Shown here: piece after piece, positions 2,316 through 63,468 of the stretch
Numbering within the stretch: the stretch's first letter is position 1
Layout: each line of letters begins with the position of its first letter
Origin: Candidatus Iainarchaeum sp.
GTDB taxonomy: Archaea; Iainarchaeota; Iainarchaeia; JAGGVJ01
Reading direction: 5' to 3'
Assembly (NCBI GenBank): GCA_021158055.1
Contig: JAGGVJ010000019.1
Location: 1 to 64,000, forward strand
Length of the DNA stretch: 64,000 nucleotides
Notes under the pieces: model-generated
Told to the model about the DNA's origin: nothing
The model's database searches: none
Seen by the model: the letters and a program-made list of their open reading frames with translations, nothing else
Program-made: the position numbers and the translations under genes

Positions 2316-3089
2316 TTGCTTAGTTTTGTTGGTTTGGGTGTAAATGACTGGCTTGATGTTTCGTTGAAGGGGCTTAAGGCATTAAAGGAAGCAGACATGA
2401 TTTTTGCTGAGTTTTACACGAGTTGCACTGAACTTGGTTTAAAAGATCTTGAAGTGGAAATCGGCAGGAAAATAAGTTTGCTGAAAAGAGAAGATGTTGA
2501 AATAAATGCAGGCATTGTTCTTGAGGCAGCTGAAAAAAACAATGTTGTGTTTCTGGTCGGCGGGGATGCAATGAGTGCAACCACCCATATTGACCTGCGC
2601 TTGAGGGCGGCTGAGAAAGGAATCAAGACAAGGTTGGTTCACGCGTCGTCTATTTTCACTGCGGCCATCGGTTCCTGTGGCCTGCAGCTTTACAAGTTCG
2701 GGAAAAGCGCCACGGTAGTTTTTCACGAGAAAAATTTTGCTCCAACTTCGTTTTACGATGTTGTTTGTGAAAACTCAAAACTTGGCTTGCATACTTTTCT
2801 TTTTCTGGATTTGCGTGCAGAGGAAAACAAGTATATGACGGCAAACGAGGCCATTTCAGTTTTAAGAAAAATAGAATCAGAGAAAAACAAAGGCGTTTTT
2901 TTGGGTGATTCGCTTGCAGTGGTTTGCGCGCGTGTTGGTTCAGCCACGGAACTTGTCAGGTTTGGGAAAGTAAGCGAGCTTGCAGAAGAAGATTTTGGAA
3001 AACCCCTTCACGTACTAATTGTTCCCGGAAAGCTTCACGATGTTGAAAGGGAGTCTCTTGAAGTCCTCGGCAAAAAAGAGCAGGAATAA
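2316..3089 (+). CDS. dph5: Diphthine synthase
   Basis: FVGLG, AEFYTS, GDAMSATTHIDL, GLQLYKFGKSAT, GLHTFLFLD; AGGTGA SD before TTG start. Confidence 0.95.
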   Translation: MLSFVGLGVNDWLDVSLKGLKALKEADMIFAEFYTSCTELGLKDLEVEIGRKISLLKREDVEINAGIVLEAAEKNNVVFLVGGDAMSATTHIDLRLRAAEKGIKTRLVHASSIFTAAIGSCGLQLYKFGKSATVVFHEKNFAPTSFYDVVCENSKLGLHTFLFLDLRAEENKYMTANEAISVLRKIESEKNKGVFLGDSLAVVCARVGSATELVRFGKVSELAEEDFGKPLHVLIVPGKLHDVERESLEVLGKKEQE

Positions 3090-3111
3090 CTGCTGTGTGG
3101 GGTATGGGTAA

Positions 3112-3171
3112 CTGCTTGTATGACTGTCTGCTTGTATGACTGTCTGCTTGTATGACTGTCTGCTTGTATGA
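3112..3171. repeat. 16-bp tandem repeat (CTGCTTGTATGACTGT) x3.75
   Basis: Directly visible between the convergent dph5 and DUF357 genes. Confidence 0.95.
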
Positions 3172-3172
3172 T

Positions 3173-3475
3173 CTAGTCCTTTAAAGTGAACAGTTGGTGG
3201 TCTTCTCCGACGTCAAACAAACCAAGTCTTGCGCCACAGTCAAGCCACGCATGAGCGTAAGAAGCAGCGCATAGGGCAGTGAGTTTGTCGTTGTTTTTGA
3301 AGAAGTGCTGGGAGTCGTCGCAGTAGCACTTGGCCATTTCCCTGAAGTTTTTTGCTGCATCGTACAGGTGAGAGTTTTTCGGAACAGCTATTTTTGATTT
3401 TTCAAGCGCCTTGGTTGTAAGGGAAAGGTAGTGCCGGTATTTTTTGTCTATTTCAGCAGGTTTTGCTTCTTCCAT
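3173..3475 (-). CDS. DUF357 domain protein
   Basis: MAKCYCDDSQHF...ALCAASYAHAWLDCGARLG pattern. Confidence 0.85.
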   Translation of the reverse strand: MEEAKPAEIDKKYRHYLSLTTKALEKSKIAVPKNSHLYDAAKNFREMAKCYCDDSQHFFKNNDKLTALCAASYAHAWLDCGARLGLFDVGEDHQLFTLKD

Positions 3476-3476
3476 T

Positions 3477-4445
3477 TTATTCCTCTTCTGGTCTCGGTTC
3501 ATCCGAAAGCTGTGTTTCCCCTACTTCAAGCAGTGTTGTTTCTGTTATCCTTCCGTTTTCGTCAAACACCACTTCTACTTTTTCAATGCGGAATTTCCTG
3601 TCTGTTTCCCAGACTGTCCGGTTTCCGACAACGGTCCATTGCACCACACTCATTGAATCTATTTTGTATAAAATCTGAAGTATTTCGCTGATGTCTTCTG
3701 CGAATTTTGCAGCTGAAACCGCCTTTGATTTATTGAAAGCAATTGTTTTTTCAGATATTGTTATGGTTTTTCCTGTTTTTTCACCTGTTTCTGCATCTAT
3801 GTTCATTATGAGGGTAAGCACTGTGGATGTGTTTTCAGTGAGTTCGCGGTACTGATACGCTTTTACTTCAAAGACCGGCTGGCCGAGGTAAAATTTTTCC
3901 GAAACCCTGTTTATGGCGTCGAAGTGAAGGTCTTCCAACACTATTTTTTCAACTTCTTCTGCTGTCAAAAGCACGGGTTCTTCAATTGTTTCCGGCTCTT
4001 CTTCCGGTTCGCCTGCGTCGATTATAATAGATTCGTCAGTTTTTTCATCTTCAAACCTTGTTTGTTCAAGTGCCTGCAATACATGGTTCCTGCATTCCGC
4101 CCTGACTGACTGGTTTTTTATTTCGTTGCAGTACATTGACTTCAACTGCGTCCTTCCCAAGGTGTCAAAGCAGGTGTCTTTCCATTTCAAACCGAATTCA
4201 TTGCATTTTTCAGCTGTAAGCTCGTCTTTTACTGCATCGAAAACTTTTGAGTAACAGGCGTCAACAGATGATGCTATCGCAAGTGTTGAGCAAAGGGTAG
4301 GGTTTTTGTTTTCCACTGCTTTTAAAGTCACTTCCGCGTCGTTCTGAAGCGAAATGCACCCGAAAAATAGCAGTATTGCAAAAAAACCGGCACCGGCAAG
4401 GATTGCTATTTTTTGTTGTTTAGTAAGCGAATTGAAATCTACCAT
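3477..4445 (-). CDS. Membrane-anchored hypothetical protein with Cys-spaced helical repeats
   Basis: N-terminal TM helix, periodic Cys (CST..DACY, KC..DTCF, YC..AECR), acidic linker. Confidence 0.7.
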   Translation of the reverse strand: MVDFNSLTKQQKIAILAGAGFFAILLFFGCISLQNDAEVTLKAVENKNPTLCSTLAIASSVDACYSKVFDAVKDELTAEKCNEFGLKWKDTCFDTLGRTQLKSMYCNEIKNQSVRAECRNHVLQALEQTRFEDEKTDESIIIDAGEPEEEPETIEEPVLLTAEEVEKIVLEDLHFDAINRVSEKFYLGQPVFEVKAYQYRELTENTSTVLTLIMNIDAETGEKTGKTITISEKTIAFNKSKAVSAAKFAEDISEILQILYKIDSMSVVQWTVVGNRTVWETDRKFRIEKVEVVFDENGRITETTLLEVGETQLSDEPRPEEE

Positions 4446-4699
4446 GATAGTATTGTTTGTTTATGTTACTAAAGAACTTTTCTTTATTAACTGTTAATTT
4501 TTGGTAATCGGTAATTGTTGTTTGTTTTGAAGATACTTGATGATGTGCTTTCGCATGGCGGGAAAGGTTTGCATTTTGCCTTTGATTGGTAATTGTTCTT
4601 TTTTGGCGTGTAATCGCAAATGATTAAAATCAGCAGGTATATTAATTGTTTATCAGCAATATATTAGTTGTTTGATTCTTTGGTTATGGTGGTGGTTGT

Positions 4700-5137
4700 T
4701 TGAATTTTATAGAGCTTAAATCTGACAGGAACAAAAAGATAGTCTCGGCAGTCGGGGTTGTTTTGCTTGTGGTTGTGCTGGCTTTTGCAGTTTACTCAAT
4801 GTATTCTTTTTTCAAGTTAAAGCCTCTTAAACTTTCTTTAAGCGATTCGCAGATTGCACCCGGTGAGGAAACAACCCTTATGGTGCATGTTCGAAACACA
4901 GGTCCGAAAGTTTTGGAGGATCTGTTGGTGGAAGTGGAACCGACTGACTTCAGCACAGTTACAGTTGAACCTCCAAACGGAAGACAGATTAGCATTTTGG
5001 GTTCAGGTGAATTCCGCGAAGTCACTTTTTCGATTAAGGTCAGTGAAAGCGCCCTTCCCGGAAGTTACGGTGTAAACGTTGCGTTTGACAACGGAGACAG
5101 GAAAGTAAATGAAAAAATTTACTTTAGGGTCAGTTAG
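4700..5137 (+). CDS. Membrane-anchored single Ig-like (NEW3/CARDB-like) domain protein
   Basis: N-terminal TM; IAPGEETTLMVHVRNTG...LGSGEFREVTFSIKVSESALPGSY. Confidence 0.7.
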   Translation: MNFIELKSDRNKKIVSAVGVVLLVVVLAFAVYSMYSFFKLKPLKLSLSDSQIAPGEETTLMVHVRNTGPKVLEDLLVEVEPTDFSTVTVEPPNGRQISILGSGEFREVTFSIKVSESALPGSYGVNVAFDNGDRKVNEKIYFRVS

Positions 5138-5145
5138 GTGATTTT

Positions 5146-5820
5146 TTGCCAAGGGTTTTTTTGCTTGGCAAAAAACTGGCAGTAGAGATACCTTCAGATA
5201 TTGCAAGGCATCATGGTATTTCAGAGGGGCAGGAATTGACTTTTTCTTCTAAAGACGCGGGTTCTGTAATTGTTTCTGTGGAAAAACGCGGGGCTTTTTC
5301 AAGAAATTCTGTTTTGAACGAACTCCTTGAAATTCCTTTTGAGAAACGCAGTGTAAAAGCAGTTCTTGAAAAATTCTCCAGGGAAAAAAGAAAAATTTTT
5401 GCAGAGCTTGTGAAGGAAGACAAAGTAATCCTTTCTAATAAAACTTACCGCGTGCCTTTGAGTGTTGTTAAATCCGCGGGAGCGCGGGCAATGCATGGCA
5501 ATTTAGGGGATTCTTTCAGGTATCTGGTTATAAAAGAGGAAGCGGAAGCCCGCAAAGTTTCGGACGGATTAAGTGAAGAGATCTTGTCCGGAAAGATAAT
5601 TGGCGTGCGTGGCTTTGACTCGAATTTTTATGTGGTCGGCCTGGATGTTTTTAAAGAAGTTTCTTCAAAAATTTCCGGTGCCATAAACGAGGGTATTGCT
5701 GATTTTGACAGTCTGTCAAAAAAAGTGGGTGACCGGAATCTTTTGAAGGCAGTGATTGAAGTGATGAAAGACAAAGGCATGGTTGTTGAAAAACGGAACG
5801 GTTTGTTTGTGGTTGTTTGA
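5146..5820 (+). CDS. Hypothetical protein with N-terminal AbrB/MazE-like domain and C-terminal wHTH-like end
   Basis: LAVEIPSDIARHHGISEGQELTF resembles the AbrB swapped hairpin; AGGTGA SD. Confidence 0.6.
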   Translation: MPRVFLLGKKLAVEIPSDIARHHGISEGQELTFSSKDAGSVIVSVEKRGAFSRNSVLNELLEIPFEKRSVKAVLEKFSREKRKIFAELVKEDKVILSNKTYRVPLSVVKSAGARAMHGNLGDSFRYLVIKEEAEARKVSDGLSEEILSGKIIGVRGFDSNFYVVGLDVFKEVSSKISGAINEGIADFDSLSKKVGDRNLLKAVIEVMKDKGMVVEKRNGLFVVV

Positions 5821-6242
5821 GGATGAAGAATATGTCGAAAAAGCTGAAGGACAGGGGCATGTCAAAAAATTTGCTTGTGCTGGTTTTAAGTGAAGACAGT
5901 GTTGATAAAGATGCCTTGAAAGACCACTTGAAAAGTTTTGAAAAAGTCTATCTTTTGCACGTGATTGATGTTGATTCAATGGAAAACAAAGCGTTTTTCC
6001 AGGAGTGCGGGAAAGTCAGGGGTGCTGAAAAATTGCTTGAATCAATCAAGTCTTTTATCGCTGAAGCGGGGCTGGATGCAGAGTATTTTGTTGAGTGGGG
6101 GCGTTTGATGGAGAAATTGAAGATGTTTTGCACCATCTACAATATTGATGAAGTAATCACAGGCACAGGGGAGGAAAATATTTTGTCTGAACTGGAATCG
6201 GTCTGTTTGAAGGATTTGAATATTTCTTTCACTCGCCTGTGA
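5817..6242 (+). CDS. Universal stress protein-like
   Basis: VYLLHVID...VEWGRLMEKL...IDEVITG pattern; start uncertain. Confidence 0.55.
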   Translation: MRMKNMSKKLKDRGMSKNLLVLVLSEDSVDKDALKDHLKSFEKVYLLHVIDVDSMENKAFFQECGKVRGAEKLLESIKSFIAEAGLDAEYFVEWGRLMEKLKMFCTIYNIDEVITGTGEENILSELESVCLKDLNISFTRL

Positions 6243-6327
6243 TTTTTGGGTTTTTTTCGCAGAAAAACGGTCATGACAAGCATAAATAGGTGTATTGAGC
6301 ATAATAAGTATAAGATACGGTGATTGT

Positions 6328-6855
6328 TTGAGTTCAAAAAAAATGTTTGAGTGCAAGCTTGTTGAAGAAAAAGTGATTGTTGAAGACAATGATTTCATGT
6401 CCGAGCTTGTTGAAAAAGGATTTGGTGAAAAGAAGGGCAAAAAGTTGTTGCTTTCCCTGGTTGAAGCTGTGCATCTTGCTTCTCAGGAACGCTTGTGTGT
6501 GTTGAAAAGCGGGAAGAAGCTGTCGAAAGAGAAATTTGAGGATGCAGCGTCTGACCTTGACACCCAGCTGCACAAGAAACTGGTCGTGTATTCTGATTTG
6601 AGAAAACGCGGTTTCGTGGTTAAAACAGGTTTCAAGTTCGGCGGGCATTTTCGTGTCTATCCGAGAGGGGCAAAAGCAGGCGAAATGCACACCAAGTACG
6701 TTGTGCATATTTACCCGGAAGAATATGAGTGTTCGTTTACTGAGATTTCCAGGGCAGTCAGGCTTGCCCACAATATACGGACAAGGTATATAATGGCTGT
6801 CATTGACTCTGAAAACGATGTCACTTACTACAAGATTGAACGGGTGAAGCTTTAG
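6328..6855 (+). CDS. endA: tRNA-splicing endonuclease (single-unit type)
   Basis: LSLVEAVHL, VYSDLRKRGFVVKTGFKFGGHFRVY, EMH, RLAHNIR, DVTYY; GGTGA SD before TTG 6328. Confidence 0.93.
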   Translation: MSSKKMFECKLVEEKVIVEDNDFMSELVEKGFGEKKGKKLLLSLVEAVHLASQERLCVLKSGKKLSKEKFEDAASDLDTQLHKKLVVYSDLRKRGFVVKTGFKFGGHFRVYPRGAKAGEMHTKYVVHIYPEEYECSFTEISRAVRLAHNIRTRYIMAVIDSENDVTYYKIERVKL

Positions 6856-6880
6856 CTTTCAACCCTCCCTTCCCCATCGC

Positions 6881-8524
6881 TCAGATTTGTGTTTTTTTCA
6901 GGATGTTTCGCATCTGATCAATTTCTTCTTTCTGGCTTTTCTGCTGCATGTGCATGTAAACCCTTATTCCGATAATGCTTATGGCGAGAATCGCCATAAA
7001 ACCGATTACTGGAGGCACTTCCATTCCGATAAGGTTTCCGGTAATCGGAATTGTTCCAGGGATTTCTTTCTTGTTTGAGAGCAGTATTTTTTCTGTTGCA
7101 AGAGTGGTTTCTTCAATGCCGCCACTGATTTTTGTTTCAAGGTAAAATTTTTCTTTGGTTTCTTTCGGGAGTATGACAACGCTGAACTCTTTTGTTTCCC
7201 CTGGTTCGATTGAAATTTTGTCTTTTGACACAAGCGTTTCCCAGTTTTCAGGCACTCCGCTTATTTCAACTGAAATGTCTTTTGCAGGGTTTGAGGATTT
7301 GTTTGTCACTTCAAACAAGACCAGTATCTGGTTTACTTCGCCGTCTATTGTGTTTTTTTTCACGGTGTAATTCAGGTCAAGTTCGGGAAGCTCTTCCGCA
7401 CCGTTGTCAGTTTCTTCAACGTCGTTGTCTGCAGGGCTTTCAGCTGACTCTTTAATGGTTACGGTTGCGGAAATCGTTTTTGTGACCGTTCCGCCTTTTA
7501 CAGTCAAAGTCACTTGTTTTTCCCCTGTTGCTTCGGTTTCGCCTGCTTTGACAGTTACATCTACAAATTTGTCTTCCCCTGCGTTGAGCGTGAATTGTGA
7601 GTCGTCCACTTGCACGAATTCGTCTTTTGGAAGTATTACAAAGTAAGTGCTTGAATTTTCATTGTTTTTTATGTACAGGCTGGTTTTGTTGCTTGAGCCC
7701 TGTTCCACTGAAAATGTTTGGGGGGTGAATTGCACGAAGTATTCATTGCTTGGTTTCACGGTCATGCAAAGCGTGTCCCTTGCAACTACCACGTTTGATT
7801 TTTCATTTCTTAAGGCCACGGAAACCATGTATGTTCCTGCTTCAATTTTCTTTTCAGGCGTGAGTATCAGTGTTATTGTTTTTTTCTCCCCTGTGTTAAA
7901 TGAGTATAAATCGTCTGAATCCGCGTCAATCCTGACTGAAATCGGTTGGTCGTGGCTTGTGATTATTTCAAAGTCGCCGCCAGCGCCGTTATTGACATAG
8001 GTTAACTGGTATGTGCGTGAGAATCCGGGAAGCGTTGTTCTGCATGATGTGTCTTTGATGGTTGAGATTATTCCTGTTGTGCCGGTTGATTCCGTTTCGT
8101 CTGAATCAGTGTAGTAATCTGTGTCGCTTTCTGTTTTTTCACGGATTTGCGCTGTTCGGGTGTCGCTTTGGCTGCAGTATCCGTTAAATAAAGATGTGAA
8201 TGTGAGTGTTTTTTCACCGGGTCGCATGTCTTCGTCAATGTCTACCCTGACTGTCACTGTTTTTGATGACAGCGCGCTTAAGCTGAAGTTGTTTATTTCA
8301 AAGACTGTTTCAAGACCGTCGCTTGCTTGCGCGTTTAGTGAAACTGTTCCCGGGAAAGAGTAATTGTTTGTGATTTCAAGGGTGTAGTAAAGTGATTCTC
8401 CTTGTTCTGCAATTGAATTTATGGAATATGCCTGCAGGTTTCCGCAGTCAGATGCAAGCGCAGCTGAGATGAGGATTATGATTCCTATCACGATTGATAT
8501 GTGTTTTTTCATTGGTATCACCAA
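6881..8524 (-). CDS. Cell-surface protein with Ig-like/NEW3 (COG1470-like) domains and C-terminal TM anchor
   Basis: Signal peptide, repeated beta-sandwich motifs, ITGNLIG followed by TM and basic tail; start may be slightly downstream. Confidence 0.8.
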   Translation of the reverse strand: MVIPMKKHISIVIGIIILISAALASDCGNLQAYSINSIAEQGESLYYTLEITNNYSFPGTVSLNAQASDGLETVFEINNFSLSALSSKTVTVRVDIDEDMRPGEKTLTFTSLFNGYCSQSDTRTAQIREKTESDTDYYTDSDETESTGTTGIISTIKDTSCRTTLPGFSRTYQLTYVNNGAGGDFEIITSHDQPISVRIDADSDDLYSFNTGEKKTITLILTPEKKIEAGTYMVSVALRNEKSNVVVARDTLCMTVKPSNEYFVQFTPQTFSVEQGSSNKTSLYIKNNENSSTYFVILPKDEFVQVDDSQFTLNAGEDKFVDVTVKAGETEATGEKQVTLTVKGGTVTKTISATVTIKESAESPADNDVEETDNGAEELPELDLNYTVKKNTIDGEVNQILVLFEVTNKSSNPAKDISVEISGVPENWETLVSKDKISIEPGETKEFSVVILPKETKEKFYLETKISGGIEETTLATEKILLSNKKEIPGTIPITGNLIGMEVPPVIGFMAILAISIIGIRVYMHMQQKSQKEEIDQMRNILKKTQI

Positions 8525-57608: not shown

Positions 57609-57674
57609 GTGTTAACCTGATTGTTTTTATGAAATGCATTGTGTATAAATATAAGCTTATCGAATCATATAATT

Positions 57675-58319
57675 ATGAAAGAAGTGTTTTTTGCTTCCGG
57701 AAACAAAGCCAAGGTGAACCAGTTCCAGTTTGTGGCTGATTCAACGGATCTGCAGGATGAAGTGTGTGTTGTTTCTGTTTATGAACGGTTTCCGCAAATA
57801 AAAAAGTACAGCGAGGATTTCAAGACCCAAAGGGAAATTGCAGAAAACGGCGCAAGATTTATTTTTAATCAGGTGCAAAAGCCGGTTGTCACAGAAGATT
57901 CAGTGATTGAGATTCACGCTTTTGGAAACAAACCGGGCATAAGGTCAAATGCTTATCTAAAGGAAAAAGGCCTTGAGGGTCTTCTTGAAGACATGAAGAC
58001 AAAAACAGACAGGAAAGCTGAAATTGTTTCAGTTGTTGCGTTTTTTGACGGTGTGGACATGCTTGTTTTTGAAAACAGGGTTTCAGGTTCAATTGCGCAA
58101 AAGCTTTCTTTTTGTCAAGGGGAACCTGACTGGATAGGGCCGTTGTTTAACAAGTTTGGCGGCGGGTATAACGCGGTTTTTTTGCCTGATGCCGTGAATG
58201 AAACCGGCTCAAATGCAGGTGAAAAGGTAACTCTTGCTGATTTGACAGCAGGGGACGGGCTAAAATTTGGTTACAGGGAACTGAATTTCAGGAGATTGCT
58301 GAAAAAACTTTTTGGTTGA
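57675..58319 (+). CDS. Divergent Ham1/ITPase family NTP pyrophosphatase
   Basis: ASGNKAK, TEDS, FGNKPG, DRKA; atypical GGGYNAVF and GYR. Confidence 0.75.
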   Translation: MKEVFFASGNKAKVNQFQFVADSTDLQDEVCVVSVYERFPQIKKYSEDFKTQREIAENGARFIFNQVQKPVVTEDSVIEIHAFGNKPGIRSNAYLKEKGLEGLLEDMKTKTDRKAEIVSVVAFFDGVDMLVFENRVSGSIAQKLSFCQGEPDWIGPLFNKFGGGYNAVFLPDAVNETGSNAGEKVTLADLTAGDGLKFGYRELNFRRLLKKLFG

Positions 58320-58366: not shown

Positions 58367-58999
58367 ATGCTGGGTAAAAAATACAGGGATTTGGCGCAGG
58401 AAAAAGTACTTTTTCCGATAGGCAGGATTATCGCAAAAACAGGTGTTTCTCCAAACCAGATCACTCTCGCGTCTGTTCCGCTGGCGCTTGCAAGTGCGTG
58501 GTTTATCATAAACGGGAATTTGGTGCCTGCTCTTTTTTTCATGGTGCTTTCAATATTTTTTGACAATCTGGACGGCGCGGTTGCAAAATCAACAAACCAA
58601 ACGACTTTGTTTGGAAATTACCTTGATGCGATGATGGACAGGTATGTTGAACTGATTCTCATAAGCGCGTTTGCTTTCACAGGGCTTTGGTTTGAATCCA
58701 TTCTTGCACTGGGCGGGAGTTTGCTTCCAAGCTATGCAAAAGCAAGGGTTGGCTTGATAATCCCTTCAGACAACAGTGACTGGCCTGCAATAGGGGACCG
58801 CGCAGACCGGCTTTTGATTCTTATAACAGGCACTGCAGCTGCAGTGATCTATCCGGTTGTTTTTGGGTATTCAATGCTTGGCATCACCCTCTTGGCTATC
58901 GCGTTTGTTTCGCACGTTTCAACGCTTCAGCGTATGGCTTATGCCGCCGCGTTGATAAGTAAGCATGAAGAAACGCTTCAGCAAAAAAGTAAAAAATAA
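58367..58999 (+). CDS. CDP-alcohol phosphatidyltransferase (AIP synthase-like)
   Basis: SPNQIT, DNLDGAVAK...FGNYLDAMMDR, SYAKAR. Confidence 0.88.
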   Translation: MLGKKYRDLAQEKVLFPIGRIIAKTGVSPNQITLASVPLALASAWFIINGNLVPALFFMVLSIFFDNLDGAVAKSTNQTTLFGNYLDAMMDRYVELILISAFAFTGLWFESILALGGSLLPSYAKARVGLIIPSDNSDWPAIGDRADRLLILITGTAAAVIYPVVFGYSMLGITLLAIAFVSHVSTLQRMAYAAALISKHEETLQQKSKK

Positions 59000-59093: not shown

Positions 59094-59993
59094 CTATTTT
59101 AGTGAGTGATGTCTTTCAAGAATGTTGCCTGCAAGCTTAAAGTTTCCGAAAGGCATTATGTGCGCGCCTGCAAAGCCCAGCTTTTTTGCCTTTTCCAGCA
59201 TTTCATTGGAAAATTTCAGGTTGCTTTGTGTGTCTTCTATTTCTGAAATGACTTCTTCGGGAATTGTTATTCCAGGCACATGTTCATTAAGGAACTTTGC
59301 TGTTTTTGCAGAGGTGAGCAAAAGGATTCCGGGAAGGATTTTGGTGTTGATGTCTTTTGTTGCTTTAAAGAATTCTTCAAGCAAAGTTAAGTCAAAAAAA
59401 GGCTGGGTCTGAATAAATTGCGCTCCAAAAAGTGCTTTTTGCCTGATTCTTTTTATTTCAGGGTTTTTTGCTGTTGCAAAAGATCCTCCGCCTATGAATG
59501 CATCAAACTTGTTTTCAAGGGGGTTTCCGGCAAAGTCAGCTGAATTTTCAATCATGGTGTTTACTTTTGAGATCAGTTCAATTGAGTTCATTTCAAAAAC
59601 TGCTTTGGCTTTGGGGTTGTCCCCGAGTTTCGGGGGGTCGCCTGTTAAAAGCAAAAAGTTGTCTATTCCTTTTGCTTTTGCGCCAAGCAAGTCGGATTGT
59701 ATTGCAATTGAGTTCCTGTCCCGGCATGTTATCTGCATAATCGGTTCAAACCCAAGCGAAACAAGTTCAATTGACGGCACAAGCGAGTTCATTATGACGT
59801 TTCCCATGGGACAGTCCACTACATTCACTGCGTCTGCAAGCACGCAGGCTTTCAGAGCACTGTTTGTGAACTGGAAGGAGGGGGACTTCATAGGGTCTAT
59901 TTCAATTGTGAGTGCAAACTGATTGTTTTCAAGTTTTTCCCGGAAAGTCTGGATTTCCTTAAGATCGTGGTTTTGAAAGTTGTTTTTTTTCAT
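59094..59993 (-). CDS. metF: Methylenetetrahydrofolate reductase
   Basis: IEIDP, ADAVNVVD, QITCRDRN, LLTGDPP, GAQFIQTQPFFD, EHVPGI, GAHIM. Confidence 0.9.
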   Translation of the reverse strand: MKKNNFQNHDLKEIQTFREKLENNQFALTIEIDPMKSPSFQFTNSALKACVLADAVNVVDCPMGNVIMNSLVPSIELVSLGFEPIMQITCRDRNSIAIQSDLLGAKAKGIDNFLLLTGDPPKLGDNPKAKAVFEMNSIELISKVNTMIENSADFAGNPLENKFDAFIGGGSFATAKNPEIKRIRQKALFGAQFIQTQPFFDLTLLEEFFKATKDINTKILPGILLLTSAKTAKFLNEHVPGITIPEEVISEIEDTQSNLKFSNEMLEKAKKLGFAGAHIMPFGNFKLAGNILERHHSLK

Positions 59994-60049
59994 GTTATCC
60001 TTGGTTTGCTTTTGTTTTACGTTAAAGATTGTTTTCGTTTTTACTGAAA

Positions 60050-60457
60050 TTATTTTTGGCTTTTTGAAATTTCAATGGGTTTGTCCTGAGTATATTGCAG
60101 ACCGAATTTTAAAGACATTTCTGCCTTGTGCAATTCTTTTCCAAGGTATGCGTAGTGTTCGGGAAGAGACGCTTTTTCGTTTTCGATTATTGCCTGGTAT
60201 ACTGCAGTGGCGGTTTTTCCTACTATTGTGCTTGTCAGTTTTCCTGTAAGCATGGCACCGCCGTCAAGCACATTTTCGTAGTGTTCTGCTATAATTTGCT
60301 TTTTTTCCAGGTCATTGTGGATTACAAAAAACCCGTTCGGATCGTATTCAATTGATTTGCGTTCTTTTGCCTTGATTAATCTTACGTTATTGTCGTCGTT
60401 TTTGTTTTCTTCTGTTATTTTGAATTGTCTTTTGAGGAATTCTATTTGTTCACTCAA
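60050..60457 (-). CDS. DUF4346 domain protein
   Basis: DPNGFFVI, GKTATAVY, EHYAYLGKELHKAE..L.FG..YTQD; overlaps the thyA-like stop by 8 bp. Confidence 0.85.
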   Translation of the reverse strand: MSEQIEFLKRQFKITEENKNDDNNVRLIKAKERKSIEYDPNGFFVIHNDLEKKQIIAEHYENVLDGGAMLTGKLTSTIVGKTATAVYQAIIENEKASLPEHYAYLGKELHKAEMSLKFGLQYTQDKPIEISKSQK

Positions 60458-61136
60458 TATTCAACACCTCTTTTACGTTTTCCCAGTTGTGGTCATAGAT
60501 GTGGGCTGAACCGGAAACACAAGTGATGCTGCCGGTTTCAAAACCGCTTCCGTCTGCGACTTTTTTCATAAGGTTGGCAAGGCCGTACATATTTGCGGGC
60601 CAGGCTCCAAAACAGTCGTGAGAGCGAAAGTAAAGGTGAAGATGCAGCTTGCTGTCTCTTACCTGGAAATGAGTGAATATGAGGCAAGGCGCTTCATCGG
60701 ATTCGGTGTCAATTGGAGGAATCCAAGTGTGGCATATTGCTCTTCTTGTGTTTGATGAAGCTTTCAGTTTTTTTATCACCCAGTCAATCTGGTTTAATTC
60801 ATTGTTCCATTTGTGCAGGCGGTTCCCGTAAGTGTATTTGAATTCTCCCGGGTCGCTTGAAAGAATCGTCTGGTTTGTGTACTGTTCAAGCCGTTCTTTT
60901 GACCAGGGAAACCCTTTTGGTGTCATTGGCTCTTCAAGCGGGTTTTCTATGTATGCCAAAAGCTGGAGTATTTCTTTTGTGTCGTTGTCGTACTCGCTGT
61001 GAAGAATGTGCCCCCGTTTCCATATTGCCTTGATTACTTTTGGCCAGGTTTCCCCGATTGTTTTTCCTTTGACAAAAGTTCCGATTTTTGTCGGCTTTCC
61101 TGGTTCATTGCTTTCAAAAGTCAAGTGTGTCCCCAT
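60450..61136 (-). CDS. thyA: Short archaeal-type thymidylate synthase-like protein
   Basis: YTYGNRL, NQI, TRRA, PC (catalytic Cys), FRSHD, WPAN, SAHIY. Confidence 0.85.
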   Translation of the reverse strand: MGTHLTFESNEPGKPTKIGTFVKGKTIGETWPKVIKAIWKRGHILHSEYDNDTKEILQLLAYIENPLEEPMTPKGFPWSKERLEQYTNQTILSSDPGEFKYTYGNRLHKWNNELNQIDWVIKKLKASSNTRRAICHTWIPPIDTESDEAPCLIFTHFQVRDSKLHLHLYFRSHDCFGAWPANMYGLANLMKKVADGSGFETGSITCVSGSAHIYDHNWENVKEVLNIE

Positions 61137-61202
61137 CTATTCTTGTTTTTTTGTTCATTTATAGTTTGCGTAGGTTTCGTGAAGTTTGTGTTTTTTGTTT
61201 TT

Positions 61203-62099
61203 TTATTTATAGATATTTAACCCGAAATCGTTTTCCGCTTCTTTTTGCATCTCGTGCACGAATGCTGCTGCGGGAAACACGTTTTCTGCGAGTTCGATTG
61301 GTCCGAAAAGCAAAAAGTTTGAACCAAAAGCCATCTGCATTGAATTTGCAGCTACATTGCATTCGTTTTTGAATTTTTTGTGGTTTGAGTCTGAAAGCCA
61401 TTCCCACGACGATATCGCATTGTGTATTCCGTTTCCGGATGGAAGCCCGAACTTTGCTTTAACTGAAGAAACGGCGCGGACAGATGCCGCGGCACCATGG
61501 CCCAGCGGAGTGGTTGCCGTGTCAATCAAAAAATTCTGCACCCCTGCTTCTTTTGCAATATCAACAAGGCTTTTTTTAAGGAGATTGTCTTCGCAGAGCA
61601 GGTTTAGCTTCCCGGCAAGCGATGAATCCTTTGGATTGTATAAGAGGATTATCGCCGATTCAACGTCTGTGTTTTTGAGTTCGGTTATTTCTTTTTCAGT
61701 TACTGAAAAATTTATGGAGTTATAAATCATTTGGTCGCTTACGCCTGTTTCTGTTGCGTACTCGGCGCCGTAAAGGCGTGTTTCCGATTCTGTTGAGTCA
61801 ATTATAATTGGGCCTTCAAAGAGATTGCATGCAAAATCAATGCGTTCTTCCATTGACTGCGGGCTGTCTGCAAATATTTGTATTGCGCCGGGTATTCCTG
61901 TTGAATCTGATGCTTCAAGCTGTTTGTTTATGAGGTCTTCAGCGCGTTTTGAGTCAAATGAACCTGATTCGCCGGTGAGTATGTTGTGTTTTGAATAAAA
62001 AATTGTTCCGCAAAGCATGGTTGGTGTTTGCCCTGGCTGGCCACCGATTTTTGTTCCGGCAATGTCAAAAATTTTTTGTGGTTTTGAAAAAACAAACAT
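61203..62099 (-). CDS. mtrH: Methyl-tetrahydropterin:corrinoid methyltransferase, MtrH/MtxH family
   Basis: MFVFSKPQKIFDIAGTKIGGQPG..TMLCGTIFY, IIDST, IYNSIN, KFGLPSGNGIHNAISSWEWL, LLFGPIE. Confidence 0.92.
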   Translation of the reverse strand: MFVFSKPQKIFDIAGTKIGGQPGQTPTMLCGTIFYSKHNILTGESGSFDSKRAEDLINKQLEASDSTGIPGAIQIFADSPQSMEERIDFACNLFEGPIIIDSTESETRLYGAEYATETGVSDQMIYNSINFSVTEKEITELKNTDVESAIILLYNPKDSSLAGKLNLLCEDNLLKKSLVDIAKEAGVQNFLIDTATTPLGHGAAASVRAVSSVKAKFGLPSGNGIHNAISSWEWLSDSNHKKFKNECNVAANSMQMAFGSNFLLFGPIELAENVFPAAAFVHEMQKEAENDFGLNIYK

Positions 62100-62116
62100 T
62101 TACTTCACCGTTTTTA

Positions 62117-62731
62117 CTATGCTGTCTGGTTTGCCTCACTGGATTTTTCACCTATCACGCCTGTTTCGGGATCGAAAACTATTTTGTTTTCCGCGTCAAT
62201 AACTGCGATATTTTCGCCGAGATTTAGGTTTATTTTTTTTTCTTTTTCTTTTTTTGTCACAAAAAACGGTTCTCCAAAATACCCCTGGTTTTCAAGTGCG
62301 CATCGTTTGATTTCTTTTATGATTGTGTCTTTGTTTTGTGTTCCCGTTAAATCAATGACCTGGACCTGTTCCCTGAAACGGTTCACTGCTTCCTGCGGAA
62401 GGTTTTCAAGAAACGGGATGGCTCCCTTTGAATTTATGATGCGTTTGTTTTCGTCCAACCCAAACCTGCTAAGTGAAACAATTGATTGTCCTGTAAAGTG
62501 TCCTGTGACTTCTTCCCCGCACACAATTAAAAATCTTATGTTCGGGTTTGCAATCAGGTTGGTTACGACGCGCTCTATTCCAAGGTTTTCTGTGAGAGCG
62601 CGCCCGTACAAGGCAACTTCGTTCAAGTCAAGTTTTATGTCTGAAAAAAGAGTGAGTACTGAAATGCTTGCGTTTGGATTTACAACAGTATAGCTCCCCT
62701 GCAGCACAGGCCATTTTTGTTTTTCCATCAC
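62117..62731 (-). CDS. mtrA: MtrA/MtxA-family corrinoid protein, soluble (no C-terminal TM anchor)
   Basis: WPVLQGSY, TENLGIERVVTNLIANPNIRFLIVCGEEVTGHFTGQS (Co-ligand His), GAIPFLENL, RFREQV. Confidence 0.92.
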   Translation of the reverse strand: MMEKQKWPVLQGSYTVVNPNASISVLTLFSDIKLDLNEVALYGRALTENLGIERVVTNLIANPNIRFLIVCGEEVTGHFTGQSIVSLSRFGLDENKRIINSKGAIPFLENLPQEAVNRFREQVQVIDLTGTQNKDTIIKEIKRCALENQGYFGEPFFVTKKEKEKKINLNLGENIAVIDAENKIVFDPETGVIGEKSSEANQTA

Positions 62732-63141
62732 TATGAATATGGCAACGGATTCTTTTATAGATTTACTTTGCTTTGTTTGTTTGGTTTTATACCTGGTTTT
62801 TGTTTAGCTTTAATGCAAATTTTGTTCTCAAAAGGCTCCTTCAAGAAGCCCTTATTTTTTACAGGGATGCACTATTATTTGATGAAAATATAGTGGTTTA
62901 GAGGATTTATTTTTTTGAAAAAAACAAAAATGTATGTTTTTTCGACAATAAGTTTAAAAATAAGTTCTGTAAGTAAAATTAATTACAGTTTATGAGTTAT
63001 TTTGGCATGCATCAGAAAACCTTGTTTTTAGTTATTCTGATGCATAAGGGTTTTTTGTTACCGTGTGGTTATTATTTGCGGCGTGTATTTATTATTTGCA
63101 GTACTTTATTATTTGGTTTTGAAAATTTAAAATGTGATTAT

Positions 63142-63468
63142 ATGAAAACTCATGAAATCATCTTGGACATAAAAAAGGCAGAAGAAGAATCAGATAAAGT
63201 TTTGGCTGAAACAAGGGAAAAGAAAGAAAAGCTAATTTCGAAGACAAAAATTGAAGCAGAGGAAATAATTTCTTCTTCTGAAAAAACTTTTGAGAACAAA
63301 AAGTCGACAAATTTGAAGGCAGTGTCTAAAAAGATTGAAGCAATGAAAAAGGAGATCATTTCTGATGCCGGGTCTGAGATTAAGTCCATGGAAAAATCAG
63401 CATTAAAGAACATGGATAAAGCAGTTGATTTTTTGATTGTTCAGTTTAAAAAAAATGTGGGATTGTAA
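63142..63468 (+). CDS. A/V-type ATP synthase peripheral stalk subunit H (G)
   Basis: Charged coiled coil EIILDIKKAEEES...MDKAVDFLI; directly upstream of subunit I. Confidence 0.75.
   Translation: MKTHEIILDIKKAEEESDKVLAETREKKEKLISKTKIEAEEIISSSEKTFENKKSTNLKAVSKKIEAMKKEIISDAGSEIKSMEKSALKNMDKAVDFLIVQFKKNVGL

Follow-up and report, generated by a model that had tools for sequence, protein, structure and literature searches.

A mtrA-mtrH-thyA-DUF4346-metF operon in a Candidatus Iainarchaeum genome and the possibility of cobamide-dependent thymidylate synthesis

To our knowledge, dTMP is synthesized in only two known ways, by ThyA in a cycle with dihydrofolate reductase (DHFR) and serine hydroxymethyltransferase (SHMT), and by the flavin-dependent ThyX. 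Here we analyse an operon of five genes, mtrA-mtrH-thyA-DUF4346-metF, at positions 59094-62731 of a 64,000-nucleotide stretch of DNA from Candidatus Iainarchaeum sp. (positions 1 to 64,000 of contig JAGGVJ010000019.1, assembly GCA_021158055.1; this whole stretch is referred to as the window). We consider that there is a substantial chance that the operon encodes a new dTMP route. If this is true, thymidylate synthesis by a cobamide relay would join ThyA and ThyX as a third chemistry, and the thymine methyl group of DNA would arrive via vitamin B12, not directly from folate.

Several described systems share part of their machinery with this locus. The membrane-bound methyl-H4MPT:coenzyme M methyltransferase of methanogens, MtrA-H, contains homologues of the MtrA and MtrH encoded in the window; the window differs in that its MtrA has no membrane anchor, neither MtrE nor Mcr was found, and neither sodium pumping nor a coenzyme M acceptor is involved. 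MetH follows the same logic, from methyl-pterin to cobalt to a nucleophile, which in the window would be split over separate proteins. Unlike MetH, the window relies on a B12 domain of the non-homologous MtrA fold, the proposed acceptor is a carbon (dUMP C5), and no homocysteine domain was found. With the ThyA/DHFR/SHMT cycle the window shares the ThyA fold, the catalytic residues and SHMT, but it departs from both this cycle and ThyX-based synthesis in lacking DHFR, RibD_C and ThyX, while its ThyA is truncated and lies among corrinoid-transfer genes. Were a relay to operate, its net stoichiometry would resemble that of ThyX, the pterin staying reduced and the reductant coming from outside.

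MtrAH pairs are known in non-methanogens, where their role is called unclear in excerpts of PMC9635834 and PMC11291895; cytoplasmic MtrA homologues are reported without a function in part of PMC4915002, and archaeal ThyA biochemistry is called scarce in passages of PMC9012536 and PMC9931769. Our literature searches, which did not extend to subscription journals, returned no mention of ‘DUF4346’ or ‘PterinBD’ and no relevant paper linking thymidylate synthase with MtrA, corrinoid or cobalamin. The author of a first-pass annotation of the window, a model working from the sequence alone, knew of no characterised example.

All five genes lie on the minus strand. The mtrA gene (62117..62731) is followed after 17 bp by mtrH (61203..62099) and, after a further 66 bp, by thyA (60450..61136); the DUF4346 gene (60050..60457) overlaps the end of thyA by 8 bp (a gap of –8), and metF (59094..59993) starts 56 bp downstream of it. 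The arrangement, families and gaps had been given in the first-pass annotation, and the list of open reading frames (ORFs), Pfam and NCBIfam confirmed them. The operon is unbroken in contigs from two sequencing runs (a 16,171-base contig over 58000-63800 and a 9,834-base contig over 58000-62904); the two runs belong to one study, perhaps the source data of the DNA, and are therefore not independent confirmation. Runs containing the stretch carry the label hydrothermal vent metagenome. In databases, the proteins most similar to those of the genome are assigned to Candidatus Diapherotrites, and the organism is therefore a DPANN-type archaeon. A scan for sigma-70 promoters and terminators, with a model unsuited to archaea, returned no more matches than shuffled sequences did.

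The MtrA homologue (204 aa) belongs to the corrinoid-binding family PF04208 (2.1e-51; 174 bits versus a Pfam cut-off of 25) and to NCBIfam subfamily NF002126 (178 versus 161 bits), and it scores below the full-length equivalog TIGR01111 (172 versus 249 bits). It aligns with solved MtrA structures (PDB 5laa, E 3e-43). The cobalamin-binding signatures of MtrA, as listed in part of PMC4915002, are Glu54 in TEN, the cobalt-ligand His84 in GHxxGQ and a meander, GAIPF(Y/F)xEN; the window protein keeps TEN (in TENLGIE), GHFTGQ with the cobalt-ligand His, and GAIPFLEN. With all cobalamin motifs present, it is a predicted cobamide binder. Its C-terminal 45 residues are hydrophilic and contain no hydrophobic C-terminal helix, as read from the sequence rather than from a transmembrane predictor; the protein is soluble and its GHxxGQ His intact, as first described. 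MtrH (298 aa; PF02007, 4.4e-97), a methyl-pterin:corrinoid methyltransferase, passes the TIGR01114 equivalog cut-off (322.3 versus 271.4 bits), with a weaker match to MtgA. The loader MtrH and the corrinoid protein MtrA are encoded together, as in three-component methyltransferases. The MetF-like methylene-pterin reductase (299 aa; PF02219 (MTHFR), 5e-25; 88.8 bits versus a Pfam cut-off of 24) has its best NCBIfam match to the MTHFR half of NF006396 (positions 304-603 of 611) without attaining the cut-off, and it reaches no equivalog.

The short archaeal ThyA (228 aa; PF00303 Thymidylat_synt, 3e-24) passes the equivalog cut-off of TIGR03283 ‘thy_syn_methano’ (214.6 versus 174.55 bits). The catalytic residues (nucleophilic Cys, two Arg pairs, Asn, His/Tyr and Asp) are in place: the motifs PCL, TRRA, FRSHD, PAN and SAHIY can be aligned to those of solved ThyAs, and 13 relatives share them. 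Since the Pfam alignment reaches only profile position 223 of 266, the protein lacks the C-terminal segment of long ThyAs, and the truncated enzyme is presumably more open. An AF2 model (pLDDT 90.8) has its top TM-scores (0.75/0.78) to AfhB of phage HY126 (9iqu, 9iqc), a ThyA-fold dCMP hydroxylase with ~21% identity to the window ThyA. Because this best match is, by its entry titles, a hydroxylase with FAD, the ThyA fold can use a non-folate cofactor. The two proteins are alike in their short fold of ~220-235 residues, and they differ in that AfhB has another substrate and chemistry and no corrinoid.

The fourth gene encodes a stand-alone DUF4346 protein (135 aa; PF14251 ‘PterinBD-DUF4346’, 3.2e-24; 85.9 bits versus a Pfam cut-off of 29.6) that matches the C-terminal parts of the MtrA-fusion model NF002128 and of the DHPS-like model TIGR00284. 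Two alignments show its conserved motifs, DPxGFF ... HxxYLGxEL ... YxQD, with invariant polar residues D, H, H, Y, E, Y and Q. The AF2 model (pLDDT 89.4) folds into three strands plus two helices; at E<=0.001 it has no counterpart among solved structures in Foldseek (best 0.19), and the ESM Atlas gave no match >=0.9. A cap or reactivation role would be a guess by analogy. A complex prediction of ThyA, DUF4346 and MtrA scored 0.00, which is no answer and is counted neither way.

The MetF and MtrH reactions are established, as is the His-on cobamide of MtrA. We regard as the best single explanation, at somewhat short of an even chance, that the five genes form a soluble three-component cobamide methyl-transfer system with ThyA as the methyl acceptor. 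SHMT, encoded elsewhere in the genome, would supply methylene-pterin, which MetF would convert to methyl-pterin; MtrH would pass the methyl group to the Co(I) of MtrA-bound cobamide; ThyA, together with the translationally coupled DUF4346, would activate dUMP through its catalytic Cys, and dUMP C5 would take the methyl group from CH3-Co(III), yielding dTMP and Co(I). The pterin would be left fully reduced, so that no dihydropterin reductase would be needed. We infer that ThyA may accept a methyl group from a corrinoid, that DUF4346 may mediate the encounter and that the flow may run in this direction. The truncation of ThyA and the FAD-containing relative of its fold, AfhB, count in favour of this scheme.

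The gene content of the genome bears on this proposal. The assembly comprises 1,147,527 bases in 45 contigs and is an estimated 94.9% complete, and every absence given here means ‘not found’ in a ~95%-complete assembly. MtrA, MtrH, MTHFR, ThyA and DUF4346 are each present in one copy genome-wide, as is SHMT. The ThyA of the operon is the sole thymidylate synthase found, there being no ThyX and no second ThyA; DHFR_1, RibD_C and FolD were not found either, and their absence alongside a MetF-MtrH-MtrA chain favours the relay. No Mcr alpha and no MtrE were found (no individual search covered MtrB, C, D, F or G), and neither were MetE/core-MetE (Meth_synt_2), a MetH-type homocysteine domain (S-methyl_trans) or a URO-D/MtaA-type enzyme. 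The genome thus has no recognised methyl-corrinoid acceptor among those looked for (MetE/core-MetE, the MetH homocysteine domain, MtaA/URO-D type, MtrE), and with MetF, MtrH and MtrA present in the absence of MetE, the homocysteine methyltransferase domain and the MtaA/URO-D type, ThyA is the sole candidate acceptor in sight. For Mcr alpha, DHFR_1, ThyX, MetE, the MetH homocysteine domain and MtrE, absences first noted in the window thereby extend to the genome, and a complete Mtr/Mcr system, which would have explained mtrA and mtrH in another way, did not come to light. An 899-aa B12-binding radical-SAM protein, present in one copy on contig 14 (G000:C14; L241:1029-3728, minus strand; G000 is the label of the window's own genome, and other G, L and P codes denote comparison genomes, loci and proteins), carries the only other cobamide-type domain found and suggests that the organism obtains cobamide. 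PduO-type adenosyltransferase was not found in the genome, which we judge uninformative for a methyl-corrinoid protein.

The nearest relatives compared are only genomes of the same class, 0.4-1.3 Mb in size. In a sample of 41 class genomes, both long canonical ThyAs (G001 and G032) sit by adjacent SHMT and DHFR genes, and the window genome has its Mtr and MetF genes there, which also speaks for the relay.

A parallel to the window's gene order was found in Thermoplasmata. The locus L037 (titled Thermoplasmata) carries, at 2604-7116, MetF, MtrA, MtrH, a 175-aa ORF, core-MetE (PF01717, 304 aa) and a DUF4346 gene that overlaps the end of the core-MetE gene; its counterpart in L051 lies at 7027-7999. 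We sampled 121 genomes of the class of L037, found a stand-alone DUF4346 in 27 and fetched all 27 neighbourhoods (L214-L240). The order MtrA-MtrH-coreMetE-DUF4346 is present in 23 of them, with MetF adjacent in 10 of these; one more has core-MetE-DUF4346 only, and three have DUF4346 only (two at a contig end). No ThyA was found in the two members of this class whose genomes were searched. The window order, MtrA-MtrH-X-DUF4346 with MetF flanking, is that of the core-MetE operon with ThyA as X: the window operon has no core-MetE, and ThyA takes the acceptor slot, which we count in favour of the relay. Both operons have a soluble MtrA with cobalamin motifs, MtrH, MetF at one end, and a DUF4346 gene overlapping the end of the acceptor gene; they differ in the acceptor, core-MetE versus short ThyA, and in the position of MetF, upstream in Thermoplasmata and downstream in the window.

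According to part of PMC7005905, core-MetE methylates homocysteine in vitro from methylcobalamin and not from methyl-pterins, and the physiological donor suggested by its authors is a corrinoid protein yet to be identified. Because core-MetE uses methylcobalamin and a corrinoid donor has been proposed, the core-MetE operons look, by analogy, like a split, MetH-like methionine synthase, and the (MetF)-MtrA-MtrH-coreMetE-DUF4346 operon is a strong candidate for the corrinoid donor system of core-MetE. No description of this operon as a unit was found in the searched literature; its probable function is read from its gene content. If the relay in the window is true, the missing methyl donor of core-MetE would also be identified by analogy.

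We next turn to the associations of these domains elsewhere. A HMMER search with the window DUF4346 over 1.84 billion representatives gave 510 matches at E<=0.001, and 68 proteins of 180-600 aa among the best 150 of them were scanned with Pfam. PF14251 is present in 68/68; 50 also contain MtrA, eight ThyA, six Pterin_bind plus DUF6513, and three a ferredoxin domain. When 151 proteins were compared by phmmer with the window's five proteins, DUF4346 alone was seen in 94, MtrA-DUF4346 in 44, MtrA-ThyA-DUF4346 in 6, MtrA-DUF4346-ThyA in 1, ThyA-DUF4346 in 3 and DUF4346-DUF4346 in 1, the remaining 2 having no match to window proteins. Matching one genome per species against a degenerate DNA version of the conserved DUF4346 motif yielded 80 loci; DUF4346 is linked to ThyA in five of these (L018, L030, L041, L052, L054), fused to MtrA in six, and located after a core-MetE gene in two (L037, L051). 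From a metagenome scan with a ThyA alignment, the closest 80 loci (32-48% identity) were kept: 33 encode MtrA-like-ThyA-DUF4346, 7 ThyA-DUF4346, 2 MtrA-ThyA and 38 a stand-alone ThyA, in one case (L137) with a separate overlapping DUF4346. Judged by these fusions, the adjacency of the genes, and the same-order operon with core-MetE in ThyA's place, the functional link between the MtrA-type domain, DUF4346 and ThyA is real and widespread. A neighbourhood and fusion survey had been proposed in the first-pass annotation; MtrA, DUF4346 and ThyA indeed fuse and co-occur elsewhere, more broadly than its author knew, whereas MtrH and MetF were found with ThyA nowhere else searched.

A His-bearing MtrA is fused or adjacent to ThyA in three lineages, a further point for the relay. 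L142:2182-3462 encodes a His-bearing MtrA-ThyA fusion of 426-428 aa, with no DUF4346 found on its 5.7 kb contig; P0127 is an MtrA-DUF4346-ThyA protein whose MtrA domain has the His; and L030:1106-4527 carries an MtrA-DUF4346 gene with cobalamin motifs kept, a 273-aa ThyA and a dCTP deaminase, the last two separated by an oppositely oriented MscS gene. In a quick IQ-TREE phylogeny (98 rows, 212 columns), ThyA splits in two with an SH-aLRT of 100: a fused half of 53 rows, all His-less, versus a 45-row half with the window ThyA, stand-alone ThyAs (36 rows) and two pairs with separate DUF4346. The three His-bearing cases (L142/L144, L030/P0127 and the window) all fall in the latter. By this tree, the ThyA half that includes the window has been linked to His-keeping MtrA domains no fewer than three times, and the degenerate MtrA-like form defines a separate ThyA lineage. 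The L142 flanks hold a CooC/CbiA-like ATPase, an F420 gamma-glutamyl ligase and a CitG-like gene.

A wider proposition is that the short archaeal ThyA, both here and in lineages with a His-bearing MtrA fused or next to it, acts as a methyl-cobamide:dUMP methyltransferase, and that soluble MtrA homologues with DUF4346 are the long-sought physiological methyl donors of ‘core’ enzymes without pterin-binding parts of their own, core-MetE for methionine and short ThyA for dTMP; we put this forward tentatively, and with more reserve than the reading of the five genes themselves. In what was searched, no genome but this one has so far shown the complete five-gene set of the proposed relay.

A number of observations weigh against the relay. 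The window ThyA retains Cys, Arg, Tyr, Glu and Asn, together with an Asp aligned with the pterin-contacting Asp of solved ThyAs, residues whose roles we take to be the canonical ones, and it is an ordinary member of the archaeal thymidylate synthase equivalog family (TIGR03283). Its closest relatives, L134 and L136 (45-48% identity), overlap a downstream SHMT gene (L134:454-1781, L136:726-1869), and their short contigs carry no Mtr genes. MtrH and MetF were found in the fetched flanks of none of the 80 metagenome ThyA loci, many of them on short contigs, and MtrH in none of nine other ThyA/DUF4346 genomes (G002, G028, G035, G039; L030, L052, L041, L018, L054); the 0.8 Mb genome of L030 has a His-bearing MtrA, yet MtrH was not found in its assembly as it stands. 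TEN, His and GAIPFxEN are lost in 34 of 35 fused proteins with a detectable N-terminal domain, with DUF4346 retained. We know of no characterised precedent for methylation of a carbon enolate by methyl-cobamide. Finally, the lack of folA is common in archaea, and an unrecognised reductase is therefore possible.

Nearly as likely as the relay, and doubtful enough when taken by itself, is that ThyA is canonical and receives methylene-pterin straight from SHMT, the dihydropterin being recycled by such an unrecognised reductase. DUF4346 would be accessory, for example by helping to bind pterin in place of the missing C-terminal segment of ThyA, and MtrA, MtrH and MetF would form a methyl-transfer module of their own that draws on the same pterin pool and has an unrecognised or lost acceptor; recombination at a shared DUF4346 gene would have produced the gene order. 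All canonical residues and the equivalog score fit this picture, as do the ThyA-DUF4346 pairs and fusions in genomes without MtrH, the coupling of the nearest ThyA relatives to SHMT (which the window genome also has), and the predominance of stand-alone ThyA in the window's half of the tree. The Pfam name ‘PterinBD’ points the same way, along with the position of DUF4346 after the Pterin_bind barrel in DHPS-like proteins; however, a pterin-binding DUF4346 would be redundant in the Thermoplasmata operons, where MtrH already binds pterin. A canonical ThyA would also leave MetF, MtrH and an intact MtrA without an acceptor in a 1.15 Mb genome and the dihydropterin unreduced (no DHFR_1 or RibD_C having been found), and it does not explain the fusions of His-bearing MtrA to ThyA. 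In Methanosarcina cell extracts, dTMP is formed from formaldehyde and native pterin, which fits either route (part of PMC9931769).

The forward chain from methylene-pterin to dUMP, as first put forward, thus stands in part. Its MtrA-DUF4346-ThyA link is borne out by fusions, adjacency and the core-MetE parallel, and neither DHFR, ThyX nor a known acceptor among those looked for was found in the genome; it is not supported as a general system, given the 80 loci without MtrH and MetF in the fetched flanks, the nine other genomes without MtrH, the loss of motifs in 34/35 fused proteins and the canonical ThyA residues.

The His-less fused lineage deserves separate consideration. Its proteins are 435-500 aa long (e.g. 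L138, L150, L159, with 30 further metagenome loci), and they have a two-residue deletion at the position of the His loop. The cobalamin motifs are also lost in the class-relative fusions of G002, G028 and G035; class-relative fused genes lie at L008:8806-10212, L009:9776-11200 and L011:2682-3989. L142 alone of the 35 fused proteins keeps TEN, His and GAIPFxEN. The fused clade recurrently neighbours thymidylate kinase (in 11 of 45 loci), dCMP deaminase (in 5) and dCTP deaminase (in 4), and because of these neighbours we take the fused lineage to be a real dTMP enzyme. Near one fused thymidylate synthase, a 1004-aa open frame (L198:5485-8499) matches thymidylate kinase and ThyX in a single reading frame and may be a read-through across neighbouring genes.

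In the class sample, 22 genomes have ThyX, with SHMT in 22/22, and 12 have neither a detected thymidylate synthase nor SHMT. The fused-type ThyA occurs in four (G002, G028, which is one contig, G035 and G039), where SHMT, FolD, MTHFR, MtrH and DHFR_1 do not score over cut-off; in these small genomes the fused ThyAs are the only thymidylate synthases. A RibD_C (DHFR-fold) gene is present in three of the four (L010:8490-9029 in G039, G028:C1:665715-666197 and G035:C13:554-1105), in G039 ~0.9 kb from the DUF4346 ORF. From these comparisons, the MtrA-like plus DUF4346 module has a role independent of His ligation, of cobamide and of MtrH, which therefore weighs against a universal cobamide relay. 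The C1 source of the fused lineage is unexplained under every model considered.

We regard it as unlikely that the MtrA-like domain and DUF4346 serve ThyA without any methyl relay, as a scaffold or for oligomerisation, as a regulator, or as a carrier of another cofactor or a reductase, with cobamide incidental or regulatory. Such a module would account for the retention of the His-less domain together with DUF4346 in 33/80 metagenome loci and three class relatives, for the recurrent dTMP-synthesis neighbours of the fused loci, for invariant polar DUF4346 residues that suit ligand binding, and for RibD_C in three of the four fused-type genomes, close to DUF4346 in G039. It leaves unexplained why MtrH and MetF stand in core-MetE operon order, and the fused clade, being a separate and long-branched half of the ThyA tree, may have changed function.

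The MtrH and MetF reactions are reversible in principle, so the chain could also run backwards: a methylated substrate would load MtrA, MtrH would make methyl-pterin, and MetF would oxidise it to the methylene-pterin used by a canonical ThyA. MtrAH of non-methanogens have been proposed to funnel methyl groups into pterin pools (part of PMC9635834). However, no substrate:corrinoid methyltransferase was found, MttB being absent from the genome and none lying in the operon (the search did not extend to MtaB, MtmB or MtbB); methylene-pterin is already available from SHMT, and the missing dihydropterin reductase would still need an explanation. We therefore consider this direction, which the first-pass annotation had offered as its alternative, unsupported and very improbable.

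The consequences differ between these readings. If the relay is true, it would explain how the pterin cycle is closed in some DHFR-less archaea and would provide cytoplasmic MtrA homologues, the MtrAH pairs of non-methanogens and DUF4346 with a function. Even with a canonical ThyA, the fusion proteins and the core-MetE operon stay as undescribed finds: by the literature searches made here, both the MtrA-like-ThyA-DUF4346 fusions and the MtrA-MtrH-coreMetE-DUF4346 operon are undescribed.

DUF4346 itself is spread well beyond these contexts. Most of the 80 motif loci encode DHPS-like proteins of ~480-530 aa that end in a DUF4346 domain; they come from methanogens, Bathyarchaeia, Sulfolobales and methylotrophic bacteria. 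Stand-alone cyanobacterial copies are also among the loci. When DHPS-like and MtrA-DUF4346 proteins were compared by hhalign, only the DUF4346 part aligned, and DUF6513 thus shows no detectable likeness to MtrA. A related-locus search with the single window DUF4346 protein found no relative; a homologous-protein search reached only two relatives of DUF4346 and four of ThyA. A DUF4346 tree (277 rows, 108 columns) placed the window copy without support.

Bacterial MtrA-DUF4346 fusions were seen in L024, L028, L059, L075 and L085, some with ~100 extra N-terminal residues. Their neighbours include heavy-metal P-type ATPases (L028, L085) and the anaerobic ribonucleotide reductase NrdD (L059), and three related proteins carry a ferredoxin domain. 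In Prochlorococcus, the stand-alone DUF4346 is 128-132 aa long (L015, L043, L049, L058, L065, L066, L078, L087, L091), and its neighbourhood is conserved: genes for a RibD_C protein and a FemAB-like protein precede DUF4346, and a radical-SAM/TRAM enzyme follows in opposite orientation. The cyanobacterial neighbourhood (RibD_C, FemAB-like, radical-SAM, VKOR) gives no clear lead to function.

Upstream of the operon, a 158-aa ORF at 62992-63468 has no Pfam match. Just past the end of metF, on the opposite strand, lie genes of the Ham1 family (non-canonical NTP pyrophosphatase) and of a CDP-alcohol phosphatidyltransferase, at 57639-58319 (+) and 58367-58999 (+).

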